Made by a program: the position numbers and the translations under genes | In this document: positions 19,193 through 26,666 of the stretch, in pieces | How the letters are laid out: each line of letters opens with the position of its first letter | Position numbering within the stretch: the first letter of the stretch is position 1 | The notes under the pieces: generated by a model | Seen by the model: only the letters and a program-made list of their open reading frames with translations | Databases searched by the model: none | Told to the model about the DNA's origin: nothing | Source: Chloroflexota bacterium | GTDB taxonomy: Bacteria > Chloroflexota > UBA11872 | DNA length: 64,000 nt | Direction: 5' to 3' | Assembly (NCBI GenBank): GCA_965207185.1 | Contig: OZ242271.1 | Coordinates: 1,102,904 to 1,166,903, forward strand

Positions 19193-20206
19193 TTGACCCA
19201 CCGCCGTCGCCTCTACACCGCGCTCGTGGCCATGGCGCTTGCCGTGGCCGCGCTGGGCATGGCCGCGTGCGGCGCCACGCCGCAGACCACCCTCGAACCG
19301 ACCACCGAAGCGGCCCGAACCGCGCGCGATCTATTGATGTTCGTCTTCTGGGCCATGGTGGTCACCTTCGTGCTCGTGGAAGGCGCGCTGCTGTACGTCC
19401 TCATCCGTTTTCGACGGCGCAGCGGTGACGGGATTCCGCCCCAGACTCACGGCAACACCCCCCTCGAAATCGGCTGGACCATCGCGCCGGCCATCCTCGT
19501 CGTGATCATCGTGGTCCTCACCGTTCCCGCCATCTTCTCCAACGCCCGCGCCGCCAGCCCCGACGCCCTCCAGGTTCGGGCCATCGGCCACCAGTGGTGG
19601 TTCGAATTCCAATACCCCGACCTCGGGGTTGTGACTGCCAACGAGTTGCACCTGCCCGTGGACCGTGACGTCGAGATCCAACTCGAGAGCAACGACGTGC
19701 TGCACAGCTTCTGGGTCCCCAGCCTGCGCGGAAAGCTGGACATGGTGCCGGGCCGGGCGAACCGCTTCACGATCAGGCCTGAGGTCACCGGCACCTTCCC
19801 CGGTCAGTGCGCCGAGTTCTGCGGAACCGCCCACGCGCTCATGAAGTTCCACGTGGTTGTGGAAACGCAGGCTGACTTCGACGCCTGGGTCCAGAACGAA
19901 CTGTCGGACAGCCTGACGCCGGCCAGCGATCTGGCCAGGAGTGGCCAGGAAGCGCTCACCCTTGGCGGCTGCGTAGCCTGCCACACCATTCGCGGCACGG
20001 ACTCGGCGGGCGTCCTGGGGCCGGATCTGACCCACATGGGCAGCCGCCAGCACATCGCCGCCGGAATCCTGGAAAACACGCCGGAGAACATGCGCCTCTG
20101 GCTCAGCGATCCGCAGGGCGTCAAGCCGGGCAATACGATGGTGATTCCCGAATTGACCACCGACCAGCTTGACGCCTTGGTGGCCTACCTCGAGGGCCTA
20201 AAATAG
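19193..20206 (+). CDS. ctaC: Cytochrome c oxidase subunit II with fused cytochrome c (caa3 type)
   Basis: Lipobox 'MAAC', CuA 'HSFW...CAEFCGTAHALM', heme c 'CVACH'. Confidence 0.95.
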   Translation: MTHRRRLYTALVAMALAVAALGMAACGATPQTTLEPTTEAARTARDLLMFVFWAMVVTFVLVEGALLYVLIRFRRRSGDGIPPQTHGNTPLEIGWTIAPAILVVIIVVLTVPAIFSNARAASPDALQVRAIGHQWWFEFQYPDLGVVTANELHLPVDRDVEIQLESNDVLHSFWVPSLRGKLDMVPGRANRFTIRPEVTGTFPGQCAEFCGTAHALMKFHVVVETQADFDAWVQNELSDSLTPASDLARSGQEALTLGGCVACHTIRGTDSAGVLGPDLTHMGSRQHIAAGILENTPENMRLWLSDPQGVKPGNTMVIPELTTDQLDALVAYLEGLK

Positions 20207-20252
20207 GCATGCGCGCGACGATGCGCCCAGGCGCCAACCGGAGGGTGATCCC

Positions 20253-22085
20253 ATGGCGACGGTAACGGCAACCGCCCCGGACACCCGCACATATGCCGGT
20301 ACCGCCTGGAGTTGGATCACCACGGTCGATCACAAGCGGATCGCCGTGCTCTACCTGGTCACCTCCCTCGCCTTCTTCATGCTTGGTGGGCTCGAGGCGC
20401 TGATCATGCGTCTGCAGCTGGCGACGCCCGAGGCCAACGTCGTGTCGGCCGAACGGTTCACCGAGCTCTTCACCATGCACGGCACCACCATGGTGTTCCT
20501 GGCGCTGATGCCGCTCAGCGCCGCCTTCTTCAATCTGCTGGTCCCGCTGATGATCGGCGCTCGCGACGTGGCCTTCCCGCGCCTGAACGCCCTCAGCTAC
20601 TGGATCTACCTGTTCGGCGGCATCTTCATGAACATCAGCTTCGTGGCCGGCGGCGCGCCAAACGCCGGCTGGTTCGGCTACGCGCCGCTCACCGACACAG
20701 CCTTCGAAGCCACCCACGCCATCGACTTCTGGGCCTTCGGCCTCCAGATCCTGGGCGTCTCTTCCATCCTCGCCTCCATCAACTTCATCGTCACCATCAT
20801 CAACATGCGCGCGCCGGGCATGACCCTGAATCGCATGCCCATGTTCGTGTGGATGAGCATGATCACGGCCTTCCTGATCATCTTCGCTTTCCCGGCCATC
20901 ACCATCGGCCTGGTGCTGCTCCTTTTCGACCGCTACATAGAAACCAGCTTTTTCATTCCCGAGGGCGGCGGCGATCCGGTCCTCTGGCAGCACCTGTTCT
21001 GGGTCTTCGGTCACCCCGAGGTCTACATCCTCATCCTGCCGGCCATGGGCATCGTCTCCGAGATCCTGCCCACCTACTCGCGCAAGCCGCTCTTTGGCTA
21101 CGCGGTCGTGGCCTACTCCGGCGCGGCCATCGCGCTGCTCGGCTTCGGCGTCTGGACGCACCACATGTTCACGGTGGGCCTGGGCCCCATCGCCGACACC
21201 GCCTTCGCGATCTCCACCATGGCCATCGCCGTTCCGACCGGCGTGAAGATCTTCAACTGGATCGCCACGCTCTACGGCGGCTCCATCAGCTTCAAATCGC
21301 CCATGTTGTTCGCCGTGGGCATGGTGTCCATGTTCATCATCGGTGGGCTCAGCGGCGTCATGCTGGGGTCGCCGCCCATCGACTCACAGGTACAGGACAC
21401 CTACTTCGTCGTCGCCCACCTGCACTACGTGCTGTTCGGCGGCACGGTGTTCGGCTTGTTCGGGGGCATTTACCACTGGTTCCCCAAGTTCACCGGGCGC
21501 TTCATGCACGACGGCTGGGGCAAGGTGCACTGGCTGCTGATGCTGATCGGGTTCAACCTGACGTTCCTGCCGCAGCACATGCTGGGTATCGACGGCATGC
21601 CGCGCCGCGTCCACACCTACGCCGCGGAGATGGGCTTCGACCTCTGGAACATGATGTCCACCGTCGGCTCGCTCTTGATCGGGTTCTCGTTCCTGATCTT
21701 CATCATCAACGCCTTGCGCTCGATCCGCCACGGCGAACCGTCCGGCAGCGACCCGTGGGACGGCGGCACCCTCGAATGGACAATCCCCTCGCCGCCGCCC
21801 GTCTACAACTTTGCTGAGATTCCGGTCGTCGATGGCCGCTACCCCGCCTGGGACCTCAAGCGCGGCGGCGGCCACACCGGCGCCGTGGCCACGGCACCCG
21901 AGGCTGACACCGAAGCTGATGAGCCCGACATCCACATGCCCAACCCGTCCTACTGGCCGATCATCATGGCGGCCGGCATGGTGCTTGCCGCCTGCGGCCT
22001 GATCTTCCACCAGGCCTTCATCCTCTTGGGCGCGATCCTCTTCGTCATCTCGCTGTTGGGCTGGATCGAGGAACCCGCCGCATGA
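20253..22085 (+). CDS. ctaD: Cytochrome c oxidase subunit I (A1 type)
   Basis: 'TVDHKRI', 'GHPEVY', 'WTHHM', 'AHLHY', 'GMPRR'. Confidence 0.98.
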   Translation: MATVTATAPDTRTYAGTAWSWITTVDHKRIAVLYLVTSLAFFMLGGLEALIMRLQLATPEANVVSAERFTELFTMHGTTMVFLALMPLSAAFFNLLVPLMIGARDVAFPRLNALSYWIYLFGGIFMNISFVAGGAPNAGWFGYAPLTDTAFEATHAIDFWAFGLQILGVSSILASINFIVTIINMRAPGMTLNRMPMFVWMSMITAFLIIFAFPAITIGLVLLLFDRYIETSFFIPEGGGDPVLWQHLFWVFGHPEVYILILPAMGIVSEILPTYSRKPLFGYAVVAYSGAAIALLGFGVWTHHMFTVGLGPIADTAFAISTMAIAVPTGVKIFNWIATLYGGSISFKSPMLFAVGMVSMFIIGGLSGVMLGSPPIDSQVQDTYFVVAHLHYVLFGGTVFGLFGGIYHWFPKFTGRFMHDGWGKVHWLLMLIGFNLTFLPQHMLGIDGMPRRVHTYAAEMGFDLWNMMSTVGSLLIGFSFLIFIINALRSIRHGEPSGSDPWDGGTLEWTIPSPPPVYNFAEIPVVDGRYPAWDLKRGGGHTGAVATAPEADTEADEPDIHMPNPSYWPIIMAAGMVLAACGLIFHQAFILLGAILFVISLLGWIEEPAA

Positions 22086-22678
22086 CCACCGACGCGCACG
22101 CCCACCACGAAGAGCACCACAGCTCCACCGGCCTCGACAACCGCAAGCTCGGCATGTGGGCCTTCCTGGGCTCGGAAACGATGTTCTTCGGCAGCCTGAT
22201 CCTGGTCATGCTGATCAACAAGCACAACACGCTGGGCGGCCCGGGTCAGGAAGTTCTGGATCTCGTCCTGACCTCATTCACCACCTTCGTGCTGCTCACC
22301 AGCAGTCTCGCCATGGTGTTGTCGTTGGCCGCCTTCCGGAACGGCTCGCTGCTCTGGGGCCGCATCTGGCTGGGACTGGTGATGTTGATGGGGCTGATCT
22401 TCCTCGGCGGGCAGGTCTATGAGTTCACCGAGTTTGTGACCCACAAGAACCTCACGCCGTCCACCAACCTCTTCGGCGCATCCTTCTACACCCTGGTCGG
22501 TTTCCACGGCGCGCACGTGGCCATCGGGGTCGTCTGGCTGGGCACCGCCTTGCTCTACAGCTTCCGCGGCCGCTTTCAGCCCGGTGGCGACATGTGGGGC
22601 ATCGAACTGGTCGGGCTGTACTGGCACTTCGTGGACCTGGTCTGGGTCGCGATCTTCACGCTGATCTACCTGATCTGA
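22082..22678 (+). CDS. ctaE: Cytochrome c oxidase subunit III
   Basis: 'FLGSETMFF', 'GFHGAHV', 'LYWHFVDLVW'. Confidence 0.96.
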   Translation: MTTDAHAHHEEHHSSTGLDNRKLGMWAFLGSETMFFGSLILVMLINKHNTLGGPGQEVLDLVLTSFTTFVLLTSSLAMVLSLAAFRNGSLLWGRIWLGLVMLMGLIFLGGQVYEFTEFVTHKNLTPSTNLFGASFYTLVGFHGAHVAIGVVWLGTALLYSFRGRFQPGGDMWGIELVGLYWHFVDLVWVAIFTLIYLI

Positions 22679-23031
22679 TGAGCGACTCGCACACCGCGCA
22701 CGCCGACCACGGCGGGGACACGGCGCACGACGCCGAGCATTATCGCCACGGCTACGCCAAGTACGTAATCGTCGGCGTAATCCTCACCGTCATTACCATC
22801 GTGGAGATCATGATTCCCAGCATCCCGGCCGTCGCCGACGCCTTCACCAGGCCCGGGGTTGTGGCCTCCCTGCTGATCCTCTCCTTCGCCAAGGGCGCGG
22901 GCGTGGTCGCCTACTACATGCACCTGCGGGACGACAATCGTCTGTTCACCGCCCTGTTCATGTTTCCCTTCTTCATCGCCTCCATGATCGTGCTGATCCT
23001 TTTCCTCTTCTTCTCCCTGACGGGCGGCTAG
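22678..23031 (+). CDS. ctaF: Cytochrome c oxidase subunit IV family
   Basis: TGATG coupling to ctaE, His-rich N-terminus, 'LTVITIVE...K...YYMHL'. Confidence 0.85.
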   Translation: MSDSHTAHADHGGDTAHDAEHYRHGYAKYVIVGVILTVITIVEIMIPSIPAVADAFTRPGVVASLLILSFAKGAGVVAYYMHLRDDNRLFTALFMFPFFIASMIVLILFLFFSLTGG

Positions 23032-23120: not shown

Positions 23121-23912
23121 GTGACCTTTTACCTCATCCCTGAAATCACGCTCGGTGTCGTGGTGTTGGTCGGCGCCTACGCCTACGCGGTCAGTCCCTG
23201 GAACCCCGACCGGCCGGGACGGGTCGAGCCGTGGCGCATCAGCTTCTTTGTCATCGGGGCGGCAGTCTTCTTCGCCGCCCTGCACCCGCCCATCGACAAC
23301 CTCAGCGCCGAGTTTTTCAGCATCCACATGGTCCAGCACATGATGGTGACCTTTTTGGCGCCGCCCCTGCTGTTGCTGGGCATCCCGGCCTGGATGGTGA
23401 CGCCTCTGCTGCGCCGGCCCATGGTGCGCGTGGCCTTCCGCTGGATCACCCAGCCGCTGGTTGCCGGGCTCATCGGCGTGTCGGTGTTCTGGGGCTGGCA
23501 CCTGCCGACGCTCTACGAGGGTGCGCTGAACGACCGGATCATGCACGACACCGCCCACGTCACCATGGTCGGCTCCGCGTTGCTGATGTGGTGGCCCGTC
23601 GTCAGCCGGGTGCCCGCCGCCCCCGCGGCCAGCGTGCCCATCCAGATGTTCTACCTGTTCCTGCTGACCCTGCCCTCGGGCCTGCTGAGTTCGCTCTTCG
23701 TATTTGCCGGCGAGCCGCTCTACCCGGCCTACCTGCTGGCCGCCGACCCCGGCAGGCTGTCGGCGCTTGAGGACCAGCGGATCGGCGGGCTGATCATGAA
23801 GCTGGGCGGTACGGCCCTGCTGTGGACCGTGATTACCGTGAAATTCTTCCGTTGGGTCTCCGAGACGCCAAACGAACGGGAGTTGTTGGGGCGCGCGCCG
23901 AGACGGAGCTAG
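23121..23912 (+). CDS. ctaG: caa3-type oxidase assembly factor CtaG
   Basis: 'SIHMVQHM...APPLLLLG', 'WHLP', 'WWP', 'DQRIGGLIM'. Confidence 0.88.
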   Translation: MTFYLIPEITLGVVVLVGAYAYAVSPWNPDRPGRVEPWRISFFVIGAAVFFAALHPPIDNLSAEFFSIHMVQHMMVTFLAPPLLLLGIPAWMVTPLLRRPMVRVAFRWITQPLVAGLIGVSVFWGWHLPTLYEGALNDRIMHDTAHVTMVGSALLMWWPVVSRVPAAPAASVPIQMFYLFLLTLPSGLLSSLFVFAGEPLYPAYLLAADPGRLSALEDQRIGGLIMKLGGTALLWTVITVKFFRWVSETPNERELLGRAPRRS

Positions 23913-24349
23913 CTTCCCGGGCCGGCCACGATGCTCGCCCGCGCGCCGCGCACCGCATGGCCCGGCGTGGGGTCCAGCGCTTCGTAAGTCCCCGGCTCGA
24001 TGTCGGCTTCCAGGTAGCCCGTCTGTCCCGGCCCGATCCGCGGTGAGTTGACCACGCCGCCGGGAAGTCGAACCTCCAGGCTATGGGTGTACGCGCCAAT
24101 GTTCGTAATCGCGAACCGAACTCGCGGCGCGTTCGTCCGAATCACGGCCGGCAGGATCGCGAAATCTCCAATCTGAACCCCCAATTCCTCGCAACTCGGC
24201 GGCGTGCAGGTCGTCTGCGGCGCCGTCACCGGGTCGGGGGTTGGATTCTCAATGACGGTCTGCATCGCGCCAACTTCACAGGCGGCCAGCACAACGGCGG
24301 CGGCAACCAGCACGATCAGGCGCAGGGCATGCGGGCGGACTCGGGACAT
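23909..24349 (-). CDS. Cupredoxin-like lipoprotein with non-canonical ligand loop
   Basis: Lipobox 'LAAC', 'F.ITNIG...HSL', 'IGPGQT', 'PGTYE..D..PGH...GA'. Confidence 0.75.
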   Translation of the reverse strand: MSRVRPHALRLIVLVAAAVVLAACEVGAMQTVIENPTPDPVTAPQTTCTPPSCEELGVQIGDFAILPAVIRTNAPRVRFAITNIGAYTHSLEVRLPGGVVNSPRIGPGQTGYLEADIEPGTYEALDPTPGHAVRGARASIVAGPGS

Positions 24350-24505
24350 GCGAAAACAACGATCCGTGGCGATTCGGGGTTACGGCAGAGCTTAGGGAAG
24401 CCCCCCACCACGCCGCAACACATTGAAATCCAGCCGTTCGCAATCAAGCTTCGATTGATCGCACCCGCAGCCGGCGCCGCTATGTCACCTGCAAACGGCG
24501 CGTGT

Positions 24506-24721
24506 TCACGTCCACAGCCTGTCAACGGCGACCAGCACGGTTCCGAGCGCTGCAAGCGCCACGACAAGGCGTACGGTCAGACGCGTCTCAAGCGCGTGTA
24601 GGTCAGCCTTCGTGGCGTAGTGCTGCAAGGTCCGATCAAACTCATTGCGCAACTCGCCCCGCTCGTGTTGCAGTTCGCGCCGCAGGTCTTCCAAGGTGAG
24701 CGGCTTTGTGTCTGCGGCCAT
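24506..24721 (-). CDS. Small coiled-coil protein with C-terminal TM (ATKADL; DUF1640/CCDC90-like)
   Basis: 71 aa. Shares DRTLQHYATKADL with 24915-25112, with only synonymous nucleotide differences. Confidence 0.75.
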   Translation of the reverse strand: MAADTKPLTLEDLRRELQHERGELRNEFDRTLQHYATKADLHALETRLTVRLVVALAALGTVLVAVDRLWT

Positions 24722-24734
24722 GGCGTCAATCCCC

Positions 24735-24755
24735 ATTCCCGCCCGGAAACCGCCC
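24735..24755. repeat. 21-bp direct repeat, copy 1 (ATTCCCGCCCGGAAACCGCCC)
   Basis: Identical to 25126-25146, at the same offset upstream of the ATG. Confidence 0.9.
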
Positions 24756-24914
24756 CGATGTCTTTGACTCTTGCAGCCAGTCTCGCGGCTCGCAACGCGA
24801 GCCAACGACTTCGGTCCAGTCGCGCGAACGTCACGCAAACGGCTTGAGACGACGACCGTCGCGGCCTCGACGATGCGAAATGTCATCTCACTCACATCCG
24901 CAGGCGACGGTGGA

Positions 24915-25112
24915 TCATGCCAACAACGCCACAGCGAGTGTCACGAGCGTTCCGATCACATTGACCAGGATGAGAACCAGGACACCGGCGAACCACTTGA
25001 CCATTTCGGCCTTGAGATTCGCCAGGTCAGCCTTGGTTGCGTAGTGCTGGAGCGTTCGGTCCAGCTCGGCGCGCAGGTGACCGCGAGTCAGCGGCCCGGT
25101 ATCCGCGGTCAT
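24915..25112 (-). CDS. Small coiled-coil protein with C-terminal TM (paralog of 24506-24721)
   Basis: 65 aa, 'YATKADLANLKAEMVKWFAG' followed by a hydrophobic tail. Confidence 0.75.
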   Translation of the reverse strand: MTADTGPLTRGHLRAELDRTLQHYATKADLANLKAEMVKWFAGVLVLILVNVIGTLVTLAVALLA

Positions 25113-25125
25113 AGTCTCAAGCCCA

Positions 25126-25146
25126 ATTCCCGCCCGGAAACCGCCC
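25126..25146. repeat. 21-bp direct repeat, copy 2
   Basis: Identical to 24735-24755. Confidence 0.9.
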
Positions 25147-25550
25147 AATCTCCTCGGTGATTCTATCTTCAGACGCCGCTCGCCAGAAGATTAGTCCGCA
25201 GCGGAGTCGCCCGGACCATTCTCAAGTGAACTCCCCTGCAACTGCGTCGTCAGATCGGCGTATACTCAAACAAGCAGTGACTTGCGCACCGCTGAGTCGG
25301 ACGATGCCACGCGCGGGCGTTCTCGGCACAAGCGCCTACCGCTTCGACAGGCGAACCATCCCTGTCCTCTTTGCAGACGCAGCCGCGCGACATCAGGCCG
25401 TCGGGGAACGCGCAGCCCGCGCGGCGGGTTCGTGTGTGCCCTGAGCGATGGTGTCCGACGGGGATAAGGGTTAGATTCGGGGAGCGCCAGGCAATGGACG
25501 CGTCGCGAGCGCGTCCGCAATTGCCGCAGCAGGGGGATGGTGAATGATCC

Positions 25551-26666
25551 GTGGCAGTTGAAGTCGCACTGCATCTGAACGAGGAAACACTCGAAAACGC
25601 TCTGGCCGAGCTTGTGGCCCTGGGCTCGGACCCGGGCTACCTCAATAAGTCAGAGCTCAAGAAGGTCCTGCCCGACGAGACCCACATCACGAAAGAAGTC
25701 GAGACCTGGTTCCGCATGCAGCTGGCCGAGGAAGAAATCGAGCTGCGCGACGAGGAACCGGAAGACACCGAAGGCAACGACGCCTCCAAGGTCACGACCA
25801 TCCAGTCGCGCCGCGAGCGCGACCTGGAGCTCGAGTCCGCCAGCCAGGACACGGTTCGTAGCTACCTCAACGAGATCGGCCGCATCTCGCTGCTCACGGC
25901 CAAGGAAGAGGTCGACCTGGCGCAGCGCATCGAGCGCGGTCAGGAGAGGGCCCGCCAGCACCTCATCACGGCCAACCTGCGCCTGGTGGTCAGCGTCGCC
26001 AAGAAATACACCGGCCACGGCATCCCGCTGCTGGACCTTGTCCAGGAAGGCAACGCCGGCCTCATGCGCGCCGCCGAAAAGTTCGACTGGCGTCGCGGCT
26101 ACAAGTTCAGCACCTACGCCACCTGGTGGATTCGCCAGGCGGTCACCCGGGCCATCGCCGAACAGAGCCGCACCATCCGCCTGCCGGTGCATGTGCACGA
26201 GAAGCTCACCAAGTCTTACCGCGTCCAGCGCGACTTGCAGCTGCGCCTGGGACGCGAGCCGACGGACGACGAAATCGCCCACGAGATGGAGATGAGCGAG
26301 GAGCAGATCGGCGAACTCAAGCTCGCCGCCCGCCTGCCCATTTCGCTCGAAACCCCCATCGGCGAAGACGGCGACACCGAAATCGGGCACCTGATTCCGG
26401 ACGACGACGCTGTGGAGCCGGTCGAGGCCGCCACCTCCCAGATGCTCTCCGAGCACCTCGAAGGCGTCCTCGAAATGCTCGACCCCCGCGAGCAGAAGAT
26501 CCTGCGCATGCGGCACGGGCTGGACGACGACACCCCGCGTACCCTCGACCAGGTCGGCCAGGAATTCGGCCTGACCCGTGAGCGCATTCGCCAGATCGAG
26601 TCCCAGGCCCTCCGCCGCCTCCGCCACCCCCGCCTCGCCCGCAAGCTCAAGGACTTCCTGACCTAG
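25551..26666 (+). CDS. rpoD: RNA polymerase sigma-70 factor, RpoD/SigA group
   Basis: Region 1.2 '[11 protein letters not shown]', 2.x '[12 protein letters not shown]...[15 protein letters not shown]', 4.2 'TRERIRQIE'. It could be a group-2 paralog. Confidence 0.88.

Follow-up and report, generated by a model that had tools for sequence, protein, structure and literature searches.

Introduction

Copper sites that lack a thiolate at the type-1 position of the cupredoxin fold are known mostly from engineered azurins, with FtrB as a partial and later natural case. Structures of the C112D, C112D/M121E and C112D/M121L or I azurins exist in the PDB as Cu(II) forms. Type-zero sites carry a bulky, non-coordinating axial residue (Leu or Ile, and also Phe), and their signature is a short Cu-O bond to a backbone carbonyl, a narrow parallel hyperfine and a weak band near 800 nm. 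In azurin, the Gly45 carbonyl is described as a copper ligand (PMC12071310). The C112D variants are reported to hold Cu(II), the changes favoring Cu(II) over Cu(I), and C112D/M121E is called type 2 in the title of a reference listed in the same paper (PMC8915257). Reorganization energies are given as 2.1-2.3 eV for C112D (type 2), 0.9-1.1 eV for C112D/M121L (type zero) and 0.82 eV for the wild type (PMC11953277).

Natural cupredoxin folds without the type-1 ligand set include FtrB (Cup-II) and EfeO's N-terminal domain (Cup-I). FtrB is described as binding copper through Asp and His with micromolar affinity, the Asp being required, and Rubrivivax FtrB, which has an extra His, as not binding copper (PMC11966278). 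In a 2024 paper, nitrosocyanin was counted as the only natural type-2-like cupredoxin; the same source presents AcoP as a cupredoxin partner of an oxidase in a genome devoid of CoxB maturation chaperones of the Sco/PCuAC type, and auracyanin D as having an axial Gln and a potential of +90 mV (PMC10804444).

Here we describe a predicted cupredoxin lipoprotein with Asp at the type-1 Cys position, encoded in a 64,000-nucleotide stretch of Chloroflexota DNA (the window, to which all coordinates refer). In the literature covered, which left most subscription chemistry journals outside its scope, we found no account of this protein family or of a natural two-His/Asp site at the type-1 position. Its sequence leads us to favor, tentatively and with slightly less than even confidence, a thiolate-free, type-2-like Cu(II) site serving to hold or hand off copper.

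Results and Discussion

A predicted lipoprotein gene convergent with ctaG

The gene (P0001; 23909..24349, minus strand) is a 146-aa ORF. Its product runs from a hydrophobic leader ending at Cys24 through a Pro/Thr linker and a C48-x4-C53 motif to His89 and a loop of the form D126-x4-H131-x4-A136; ligand sets are written below in the order of residues 89, 126, 131 and 136, H/D/H/A for the window protein. The predicted signal peptide (24278..24349, minus strand) closes with the residues LAAC, which we take to be a lipobox with Cys24 as the lipidation site. In one alignment, Cys24 was present in 37 of the 38 genes of the family, and in the 38th gene it lies on a second contig piece. The lipobox-like motif and its conserved Cys predict a membrane-anchored lipoprotein.

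The gene converges on ctaG (Caa3_CtaG, PF09678, E 1.4e-52; 23121..23912, plus strand), which here closes the caa3 operon, and the stop codons of the pair share 4 nt (23909-23912), as the initial annotation had reported. Subunits II (CuA plus heme c), I, III and IV of the caa3 oxidase are encoded at 19193..23031 (plus strand), opposite to the cupredoxin gene. The divergent neighbor, rpoD (25551..26666, plus strand), keeps its place next to the cupredoxin gene also when the cox operon is located elsewhere. A search of 23700-25700 for promoter- or terminator-like sites gave none. Two small tandem paralogous ORFs (24506-24895 and 24915-25148, minus strand) of ~71-77 aa from their likely starts, 73-77% alike in DNA and each with a hydrophobic C-terminus, separate the cupredoxin gene from rpoD; they gave no Pfam match, and matches to them occurred at 19 of 21 H/D/H/A loci and at none of the Glu- or Gln-axial loci. 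Oxidase subunit I (20253-22085, plus strand) has a C-terminal extension that weakly matches PF12270 (Cyt_c_ox_IV, E 2.9e-05, under the cut-off).

A cupredoxin fold with Asp at the thiolate position

A Pfam search with the 146-aa protein itself gave no cupredoxin match, nor did a single-sequence PDB search; of 14 proteins from the extended family, however, 9 matched PF13473. A family profile of 111 relatives matched 78 PDB sequences, the best of them cupredoxin domains, and in the profile alignment 4HCF and the nitrite-reductase N-terminal cupredoxin have their Cys in the D126 column. The AF2 model is all-beta with a mean pLDDT of 94.3, and VIA-align superposed it on 4HCF (Z 12.6, rmsd 2.3, 94 aligned), the EfeO N-domain (Z 12.3), auracyanin A (Z 11.6) and FtrB (Z 11.6). 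The Atlas score to cupredoxin clusters was 0.95, and leads to unnamed clusters were all under 0.9. The cupredoxin superfamily fold proposed in the initial annotation is confidently predicted by model and superposition, with a domain of nine predicted strands over residues 53-142 (23924..24193, minus strand) and the first strand beginning at residue 53.

Both His stand at canonical type-1 positions, His89 upstream in TNIGAYTH (24083..24085) and His131 in the C-terminal loop (23957..23959), and are invariant in 38/38 family genomes. Asp126 (23972..23974) takes the place of the Cys thiolate ligand and Ala136 (23942..23944) that of the axial Met, Gln or Leu (all minus strand). These two assignments, made earlier from the sequence, are borne out by the profile columns: among 186 domains (from the 150 best of 469 representative matches) 149 read H/C/H/M there. 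Because Cys is Asp and Met is Ala, no blue thiolate site is possible.

The C48-x4-C53 pair (24191..24208, minus strand), where strand 1 begins, probably forms a structural disulfide, judging from cupredoxin topology, which would put it at the pole opposite the metal site. The pair is invariant in the alignment, which includes H/C/H/M relatives, so it is older than the Cys-to-Asp swap. The motif had been singled out as an extra feature N-terminal to the domain; it is there, but it is not particular to the swap. A role in compensating for the lost Cys was ruled out, since the motif predates that loss.

Comparison with described systems separates the protein from each of them. With type-1 proteins of PF13473 (Cupredoxin_1; 4HCF, auracyanins) it has in common the fold, the loop spacing and both His, but Asp and Ala stand where these have Cys and Met; its loop reads D-x4-H-x4-A where the rusticyanin-type loop reads C-x4-H-x4-M. 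In terms of sequence positions, the His/Asp/His equatorial set is that of engineered C112D azurins, and the ligand identity of the H/D/H/E orthologues is exactly that of C112D/M121E azurin. The window protein differs from these azurins in being natural, in its scaffold (11-13% identity) and in its axial Ala. The bulky axial residue of type-zero sites (Leu, Ile in 3FPY, 3FQ1) is replaced by Ala in 21 and by Glu in 2 of the 23 Asp genomes, and the type-zero assignment offered in the initial annotation fails on this point.

Like the window protein, FtrB and the EfeO N-terminal domain are cupredoxin folds found in nature that lack the type-1 set. FtrB binds copper via a C-terminal Asp and His and does not keep the His/His/Cys arrangement, whereas the window protein keeps both canonical His and, unlike FtrB, descends recently from Cys orthologues. 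FtrB also has an acidic Fe site (E84, E86, E93) within an ftr operon, whereas the window genome has no FTR1 match and the neighbors of the gene are rpoD and ctaG. AcoP of Acidithiobacillus ferrooxidans is a membrane-anchored, oxidase-associated single-domain cupredoxin from a genome without Sco/PCuAC, a genome trait found here as well; it has a green Cys/Met/His/His site and a demonstrated interaction with the oxidase, whereas the window protein has different ligands and is at most a candidate for such a partnership. The absence of Sco/PCuAC is moreover nearly as true of a sister family that lacks the gene (Sco 1/12, PCuAC 0/12). Auracyanin D and stellacyanin-type proteins, with axial Gln, have the ligand set of 14 H/C/H/Q orthologues, that is, of the likely ancestor and not of the window protein. 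On the features tested, the protein has a cupredoxin fold yet is outside the type-1, engineered type-zero, FtrB/EfeO and AcoP groups.

Conservation and selection at the ligand positions

The gene is single copy in all 38 genomes of one Chloroflexota family. The ligand sets are H/D/H/A in 21 genomes, H/C/H/Q in 14, H/D/H/E in two and H/C/H/E in one. Asp and Ala are conserved in part of the family, with Asp in 23/38 and Ala in 21/38 (Gln in 14 and Glu in 3 at the axial position); Cys is present in 15/38. Among 22 database homologues, 20 (67-97% identity) are H/D/H/A, one is H/C/H/E and one H/C/H/Q. The named sources of the cluster members are Chloroflexota. A metagenome scan gave 4 loci, 2 of them full-length, and added nothing new; in the sister family an orthologue was found in 0/16 genomes. 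Four ligand sets thus survive in single-copy, syntenic orthologues under purifying selection, and this four-step living series makes a natural His/Asp/His site, whether it serves redox, metal handling or neither, directly testable.

The initial annotation had itself raised the prospect that the Asp is a one-off decay, and we took a pseudogene or a sequencing error together with it. The protein itself has no Pfam match, as a decayed copy might. However, the reading frame is intact in 37/38 genomes, the 38th copy being split across two contig ends, and Asp is found in all 13 other members of the 90% cluster among those listed. Over the 21 H/D/H/A genomes, pairwise dN/dS for the domain has a median of 0.059, compared to 0.076 for ctaG, and medians for the gene range from 0.059 to 0.073, indicative of strong purifying selection. 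Among the 23 Asp genomes, synonymous changes were counted at H89 (4), D126 (3) and H131 (4), 11 in total, with 0 amino-acid changes, and both Asp codons are in use at D126. Selection, the unchanged ligands and the 38-genome ligand survey refute decay, whose probability we regard as negligible.

How far this invariance is special to the ligands is limited by the conservation of the domain as a whole: 35 of 87 domain positions (40%) are invariant among Asp genomes, and so are 14 of the 58 that differ between Cys genomes, so that the ligands stand out only moderately.

Asp at the Cys column of other cupredoxins

Asp is the commonest non-Cys residue at the Cys column, with 8 of 186 domains, 6 of them outside the family, and it always precedes Pro; this census is biased, as the query itself has Asp. 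The second His is gone in 5 of the 6 Asp domains outside the family. The recurrence of Asp-Pro in six unrelated domains, most of them lacking the second His, speaks for a structural role. It gives weight to an alternative in which no metal is bound: Asp126 would cap an Asp-Pro turn in place of the Cys as hydrogen-bond acceptor, and the lipoprotein would dock or scaffold through the old surface around His131. We regard this as unlikely, although it is the rival that we take most seriously. The 40% of domain positions that are equally invariant agree with it, as does an axial position devoid of donor ability in 21 genomes. Metal loss of this kind would also have company, as ligand-free cupredoxin-fold lipoproteins of 144-145 aa occur in 6/6 genomes of another family of the class (L111-L116, ~1438-1914). 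Against it, both His are present in 23/23 Asp genomes, across two divergent lineages and through 8 synonymous and 0 amino-acid changes; the Glu-axial Asp form gains a donor instead of losing one; and C112D azurins are reported to retain Cu(II) (PMC8915257). The two Asp lineages that keep both His are ~47% identical, and this retention sets the family apart from the unrelated Asp domains.

The unrelated proteins with Asp at the Cys column are P0070, P0052, P0077, P0080, P0109 and P0049. P0070 has four repeats, of which one, a natural C112D-like domain, reads H/D/H/M among H/C/H/M neighbors, and P0077 and P0109 read H/D/Y. In two distant genomes of the phylum (L058, L059), a canonical H/C/H/M relative is flanked by a second cupredoxin-like gene and by a gene for a large membrane protein.

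History of the ligand swap

Those distant relatives in which C-x4-C recurs are canonical H/C/H/M proteins, and the nearest relatives outside the family are lipoproteins of this kind. H/C/H/Q is the set of the remaining three genera of the family, which branch outside the genus of the window in an outgroup-rooted tree; we infer a type-1 protein with axial Gln as the ancestor of the family. The codons at the axial position go from CAG through GAG/GAA to GCN. This series indicates that Ala arose from Gln/Glu and not directly from Met, so that of the Cys-to-Asp and Met-to-Ala double swap first described, the former stands and the latter does not (codons, 38 genomes).

In species trees from flanking genes and from the unlinked rpoB+rpoC, the genome with Cys/Glu (G019) forms the sister of those with Asp/Glu. 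A single Asp clade was rejected (AU p 0.003 for flanking genes and 5.6e-5 for rpoB+rpoC), and the rejection held (p at most 0.006) with recoded data or with GC-sensitive columns left out; the same treatments rejected low GC alone as what joins G019 with G009. The trees used subsets of the 38 family genomes (13 for flanking genes, 9 for rpoB+rpoC with one outgroup among the 9, 16 for the protein). The tree of the protein itself, with the two ligand columns removed, weakly groups the Asp sequences (82/82) and does not reject the species topology (p 0.36), and because of this grouping two origins of Asp are not proven. Asp was gained either twice, or once with reversion or gene exchange.

Genomic context and the link to the oxidase

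Linkage to the cox genes, raised in the initial annotation, is close in most genomes: ctaG lies within 5 kb of the gene, on the opposite strand, in 37/38 genomes and is unlinked in one. In that genome (G417) the cupredoxin gene stays beside rpoD and CoxB is ~222 kb away. The rpoD gene was near in 35/38 genomes, the remaining 3 having short flanks. Co-orientation with the cox genes was seen in none of the 37 linked genomes, where the gene is always on the opposite strand, and the cupredoxin-ctaG junction tolerates insertions of 1.7-5 kb. In several relatives the junction is occupied by operonic ctaA/ctaB or by unrelated inserts. Since ctaA/ctaB stand between the genes in relatives and are absent at the junction in the window genome, the 4-nt overlap is derived, and it was ruled out as a sign of coupling.

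The ctaA/ctaB of the window genome, genes of heme A/O synthesis, are distant copies (30-36% identity) located elsewhere (G000:C1:2461329-2463001; L027, L028, L029, L030, L031), and G013 keeps a frameshifted ctaA remnant; the operonic pair was possibly replaced by a foreign copy.

Sco and PCuAC were found in 0/21 family genomes (co-occurrence searches took in 21 of the 38 family and 12 of the 16 sister-family genomes). CuA and heme c motifs were intact in all 17 family genomes with a subunit II sequence at hand. The sister family has CoxB in 11/12 genomes, CtaG in 12/12, ActD in 12/12, Sco in 1/12 and PCuAC in 0/12. As it has caa3 and alternative complex III (ACIII) without the cupredoxin gene, the protein would be at most accessory and not indispensable for this type of oxidase, and obligate replacement of Sco/PCuAC by the gene was rejected on the same comparison. 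The tie to the adjacent oxidase that had been suggested is therefore weak: ctaG is the neighbor in 37/38 genomes, but the opposite strand, the insertions at the junction and the caa3 of the sister family without the gene count against it. When a complex of the protein and the CuA plus heme c portion of subunit II was predicted, the score was 0.00, which is no answer and evidence neither way.

In the sister-family genomes (G025-G036; L119-L122), caa3-type CoxB occurs with CtaG and nearly without Sco/PCuAC, and in the 4 loci inspected ctaG was not part of the cox locus.

A candidate type-2-like copper site and its rivals

The reading that we tentatively prefer is that a former blue-copper site, now His89/Asp126/His131 with axial Ala, would hold Cu(II) as a colorless center, and that copper would be held or handed over on the membrane's outer face rather than electrons being carried fast. 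The axial residue may have changed from Gln to Glu to Ala via single-base steps (CAG, GAG, GCG), and Cys to Asp once with reversion, or twice. Both His would have been kept because metal is still bound. Loss of the thiolate would raise the reorganization energy, and the axial Ala may let water or an incoming ligand reach the vacant position, which would suit metal handling more than electron transfer. Since Glu or Ala stands in the natural forms where type-zero azurins have a bulky hydrophobic residue, a type-2-like, open-axial site appears likelier than type zero. If the protein does handle copper, the metal might be passed to the CuA domain of the caa3 oxidase, because the family lacks Sco and PCuAC, although even under that model we consider this less likely than not. 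A CopC-domain protein is encoded in the window genome.

A harder metal (Fe, Mn or Zn) might instead be bound by the two His and one or two carboxylates, for capture or for catalysis at the open axial position. The ligand series shifts steadily from S to O donors, two iron-uptake proteins, EfeO and FtrB, are among the closest folds, a weak NCBIfam EfeO match exists (E 0.00039, far under the cut-off), and azurin M121E is reported to support redox-active Fe (PMC12071310). However, neither an FTR1/EfeU permease (PF03239) nor a multicopper oxidase had a match in the 94%-complete window genome, and iron-uptake genes were not seen adjoining the gene in the loci examined. A Glu cluster like that of FtrB is not evident by eye, a single Glu (E92) following His89. 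We regard a harder metal as quite improbable.

More doubtful still is a natural type-zero-like site, in which thiolate-free copper of low reorganization energy would act as an auracyanin-like shuttle from ACIII to caa3. Several observations fit such a shuttle. No other single-domain cupredoxin was found in the window genome, which has an ACIII-like operon and in which a cytochrome b of the bc type was not found, and Cys-bearing orthologues occupy the same genomic position. Roseiflexus auracyanin is reported to accept electrons from ActE (PMC8552683), C112D/M121L azurin to recover 0.9-1.1 eV (PMC11953277), and FtrB to show reversible redox near 500 mV without Cys (PMC11966278). On the other hand, the axial Ala or Glu is not the Leu/Ile of 3FPY and 3FQ1, and C112D/M121E, the counterpart of the Glu form, is described as type 2 (PMC8915257). 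The caa3 oxidase has its own heme c, and Rhodothermus ActE was postulated to feed caa3 directly (PMC8552683); the sister family without the gene has ActD in 12/12 and CoxB in 11/12 genomes. It is likewise doubtful that selection turned a Gln-axial blue-copper lipoprotein into a sulfur-free redox copper center, possibly twice, within one Chloroflexota genus. If it did, the protein would be a natural counterpart of the engineered type-zero azurin between alternative complex III and caa3, with the steps H/C/H/Q, H/C/H/E, H/D/H/E and H/D/H/A all still extant as syntenic orthologues.

The ACIII-like operon (L126; G000:C1:72000-90000) encodes multiheme c, molybdopterin-like, Fe-S, membrane, ActD and monoheme c subunits, and is directly followed by ccm genes for cytochrome c maturation.
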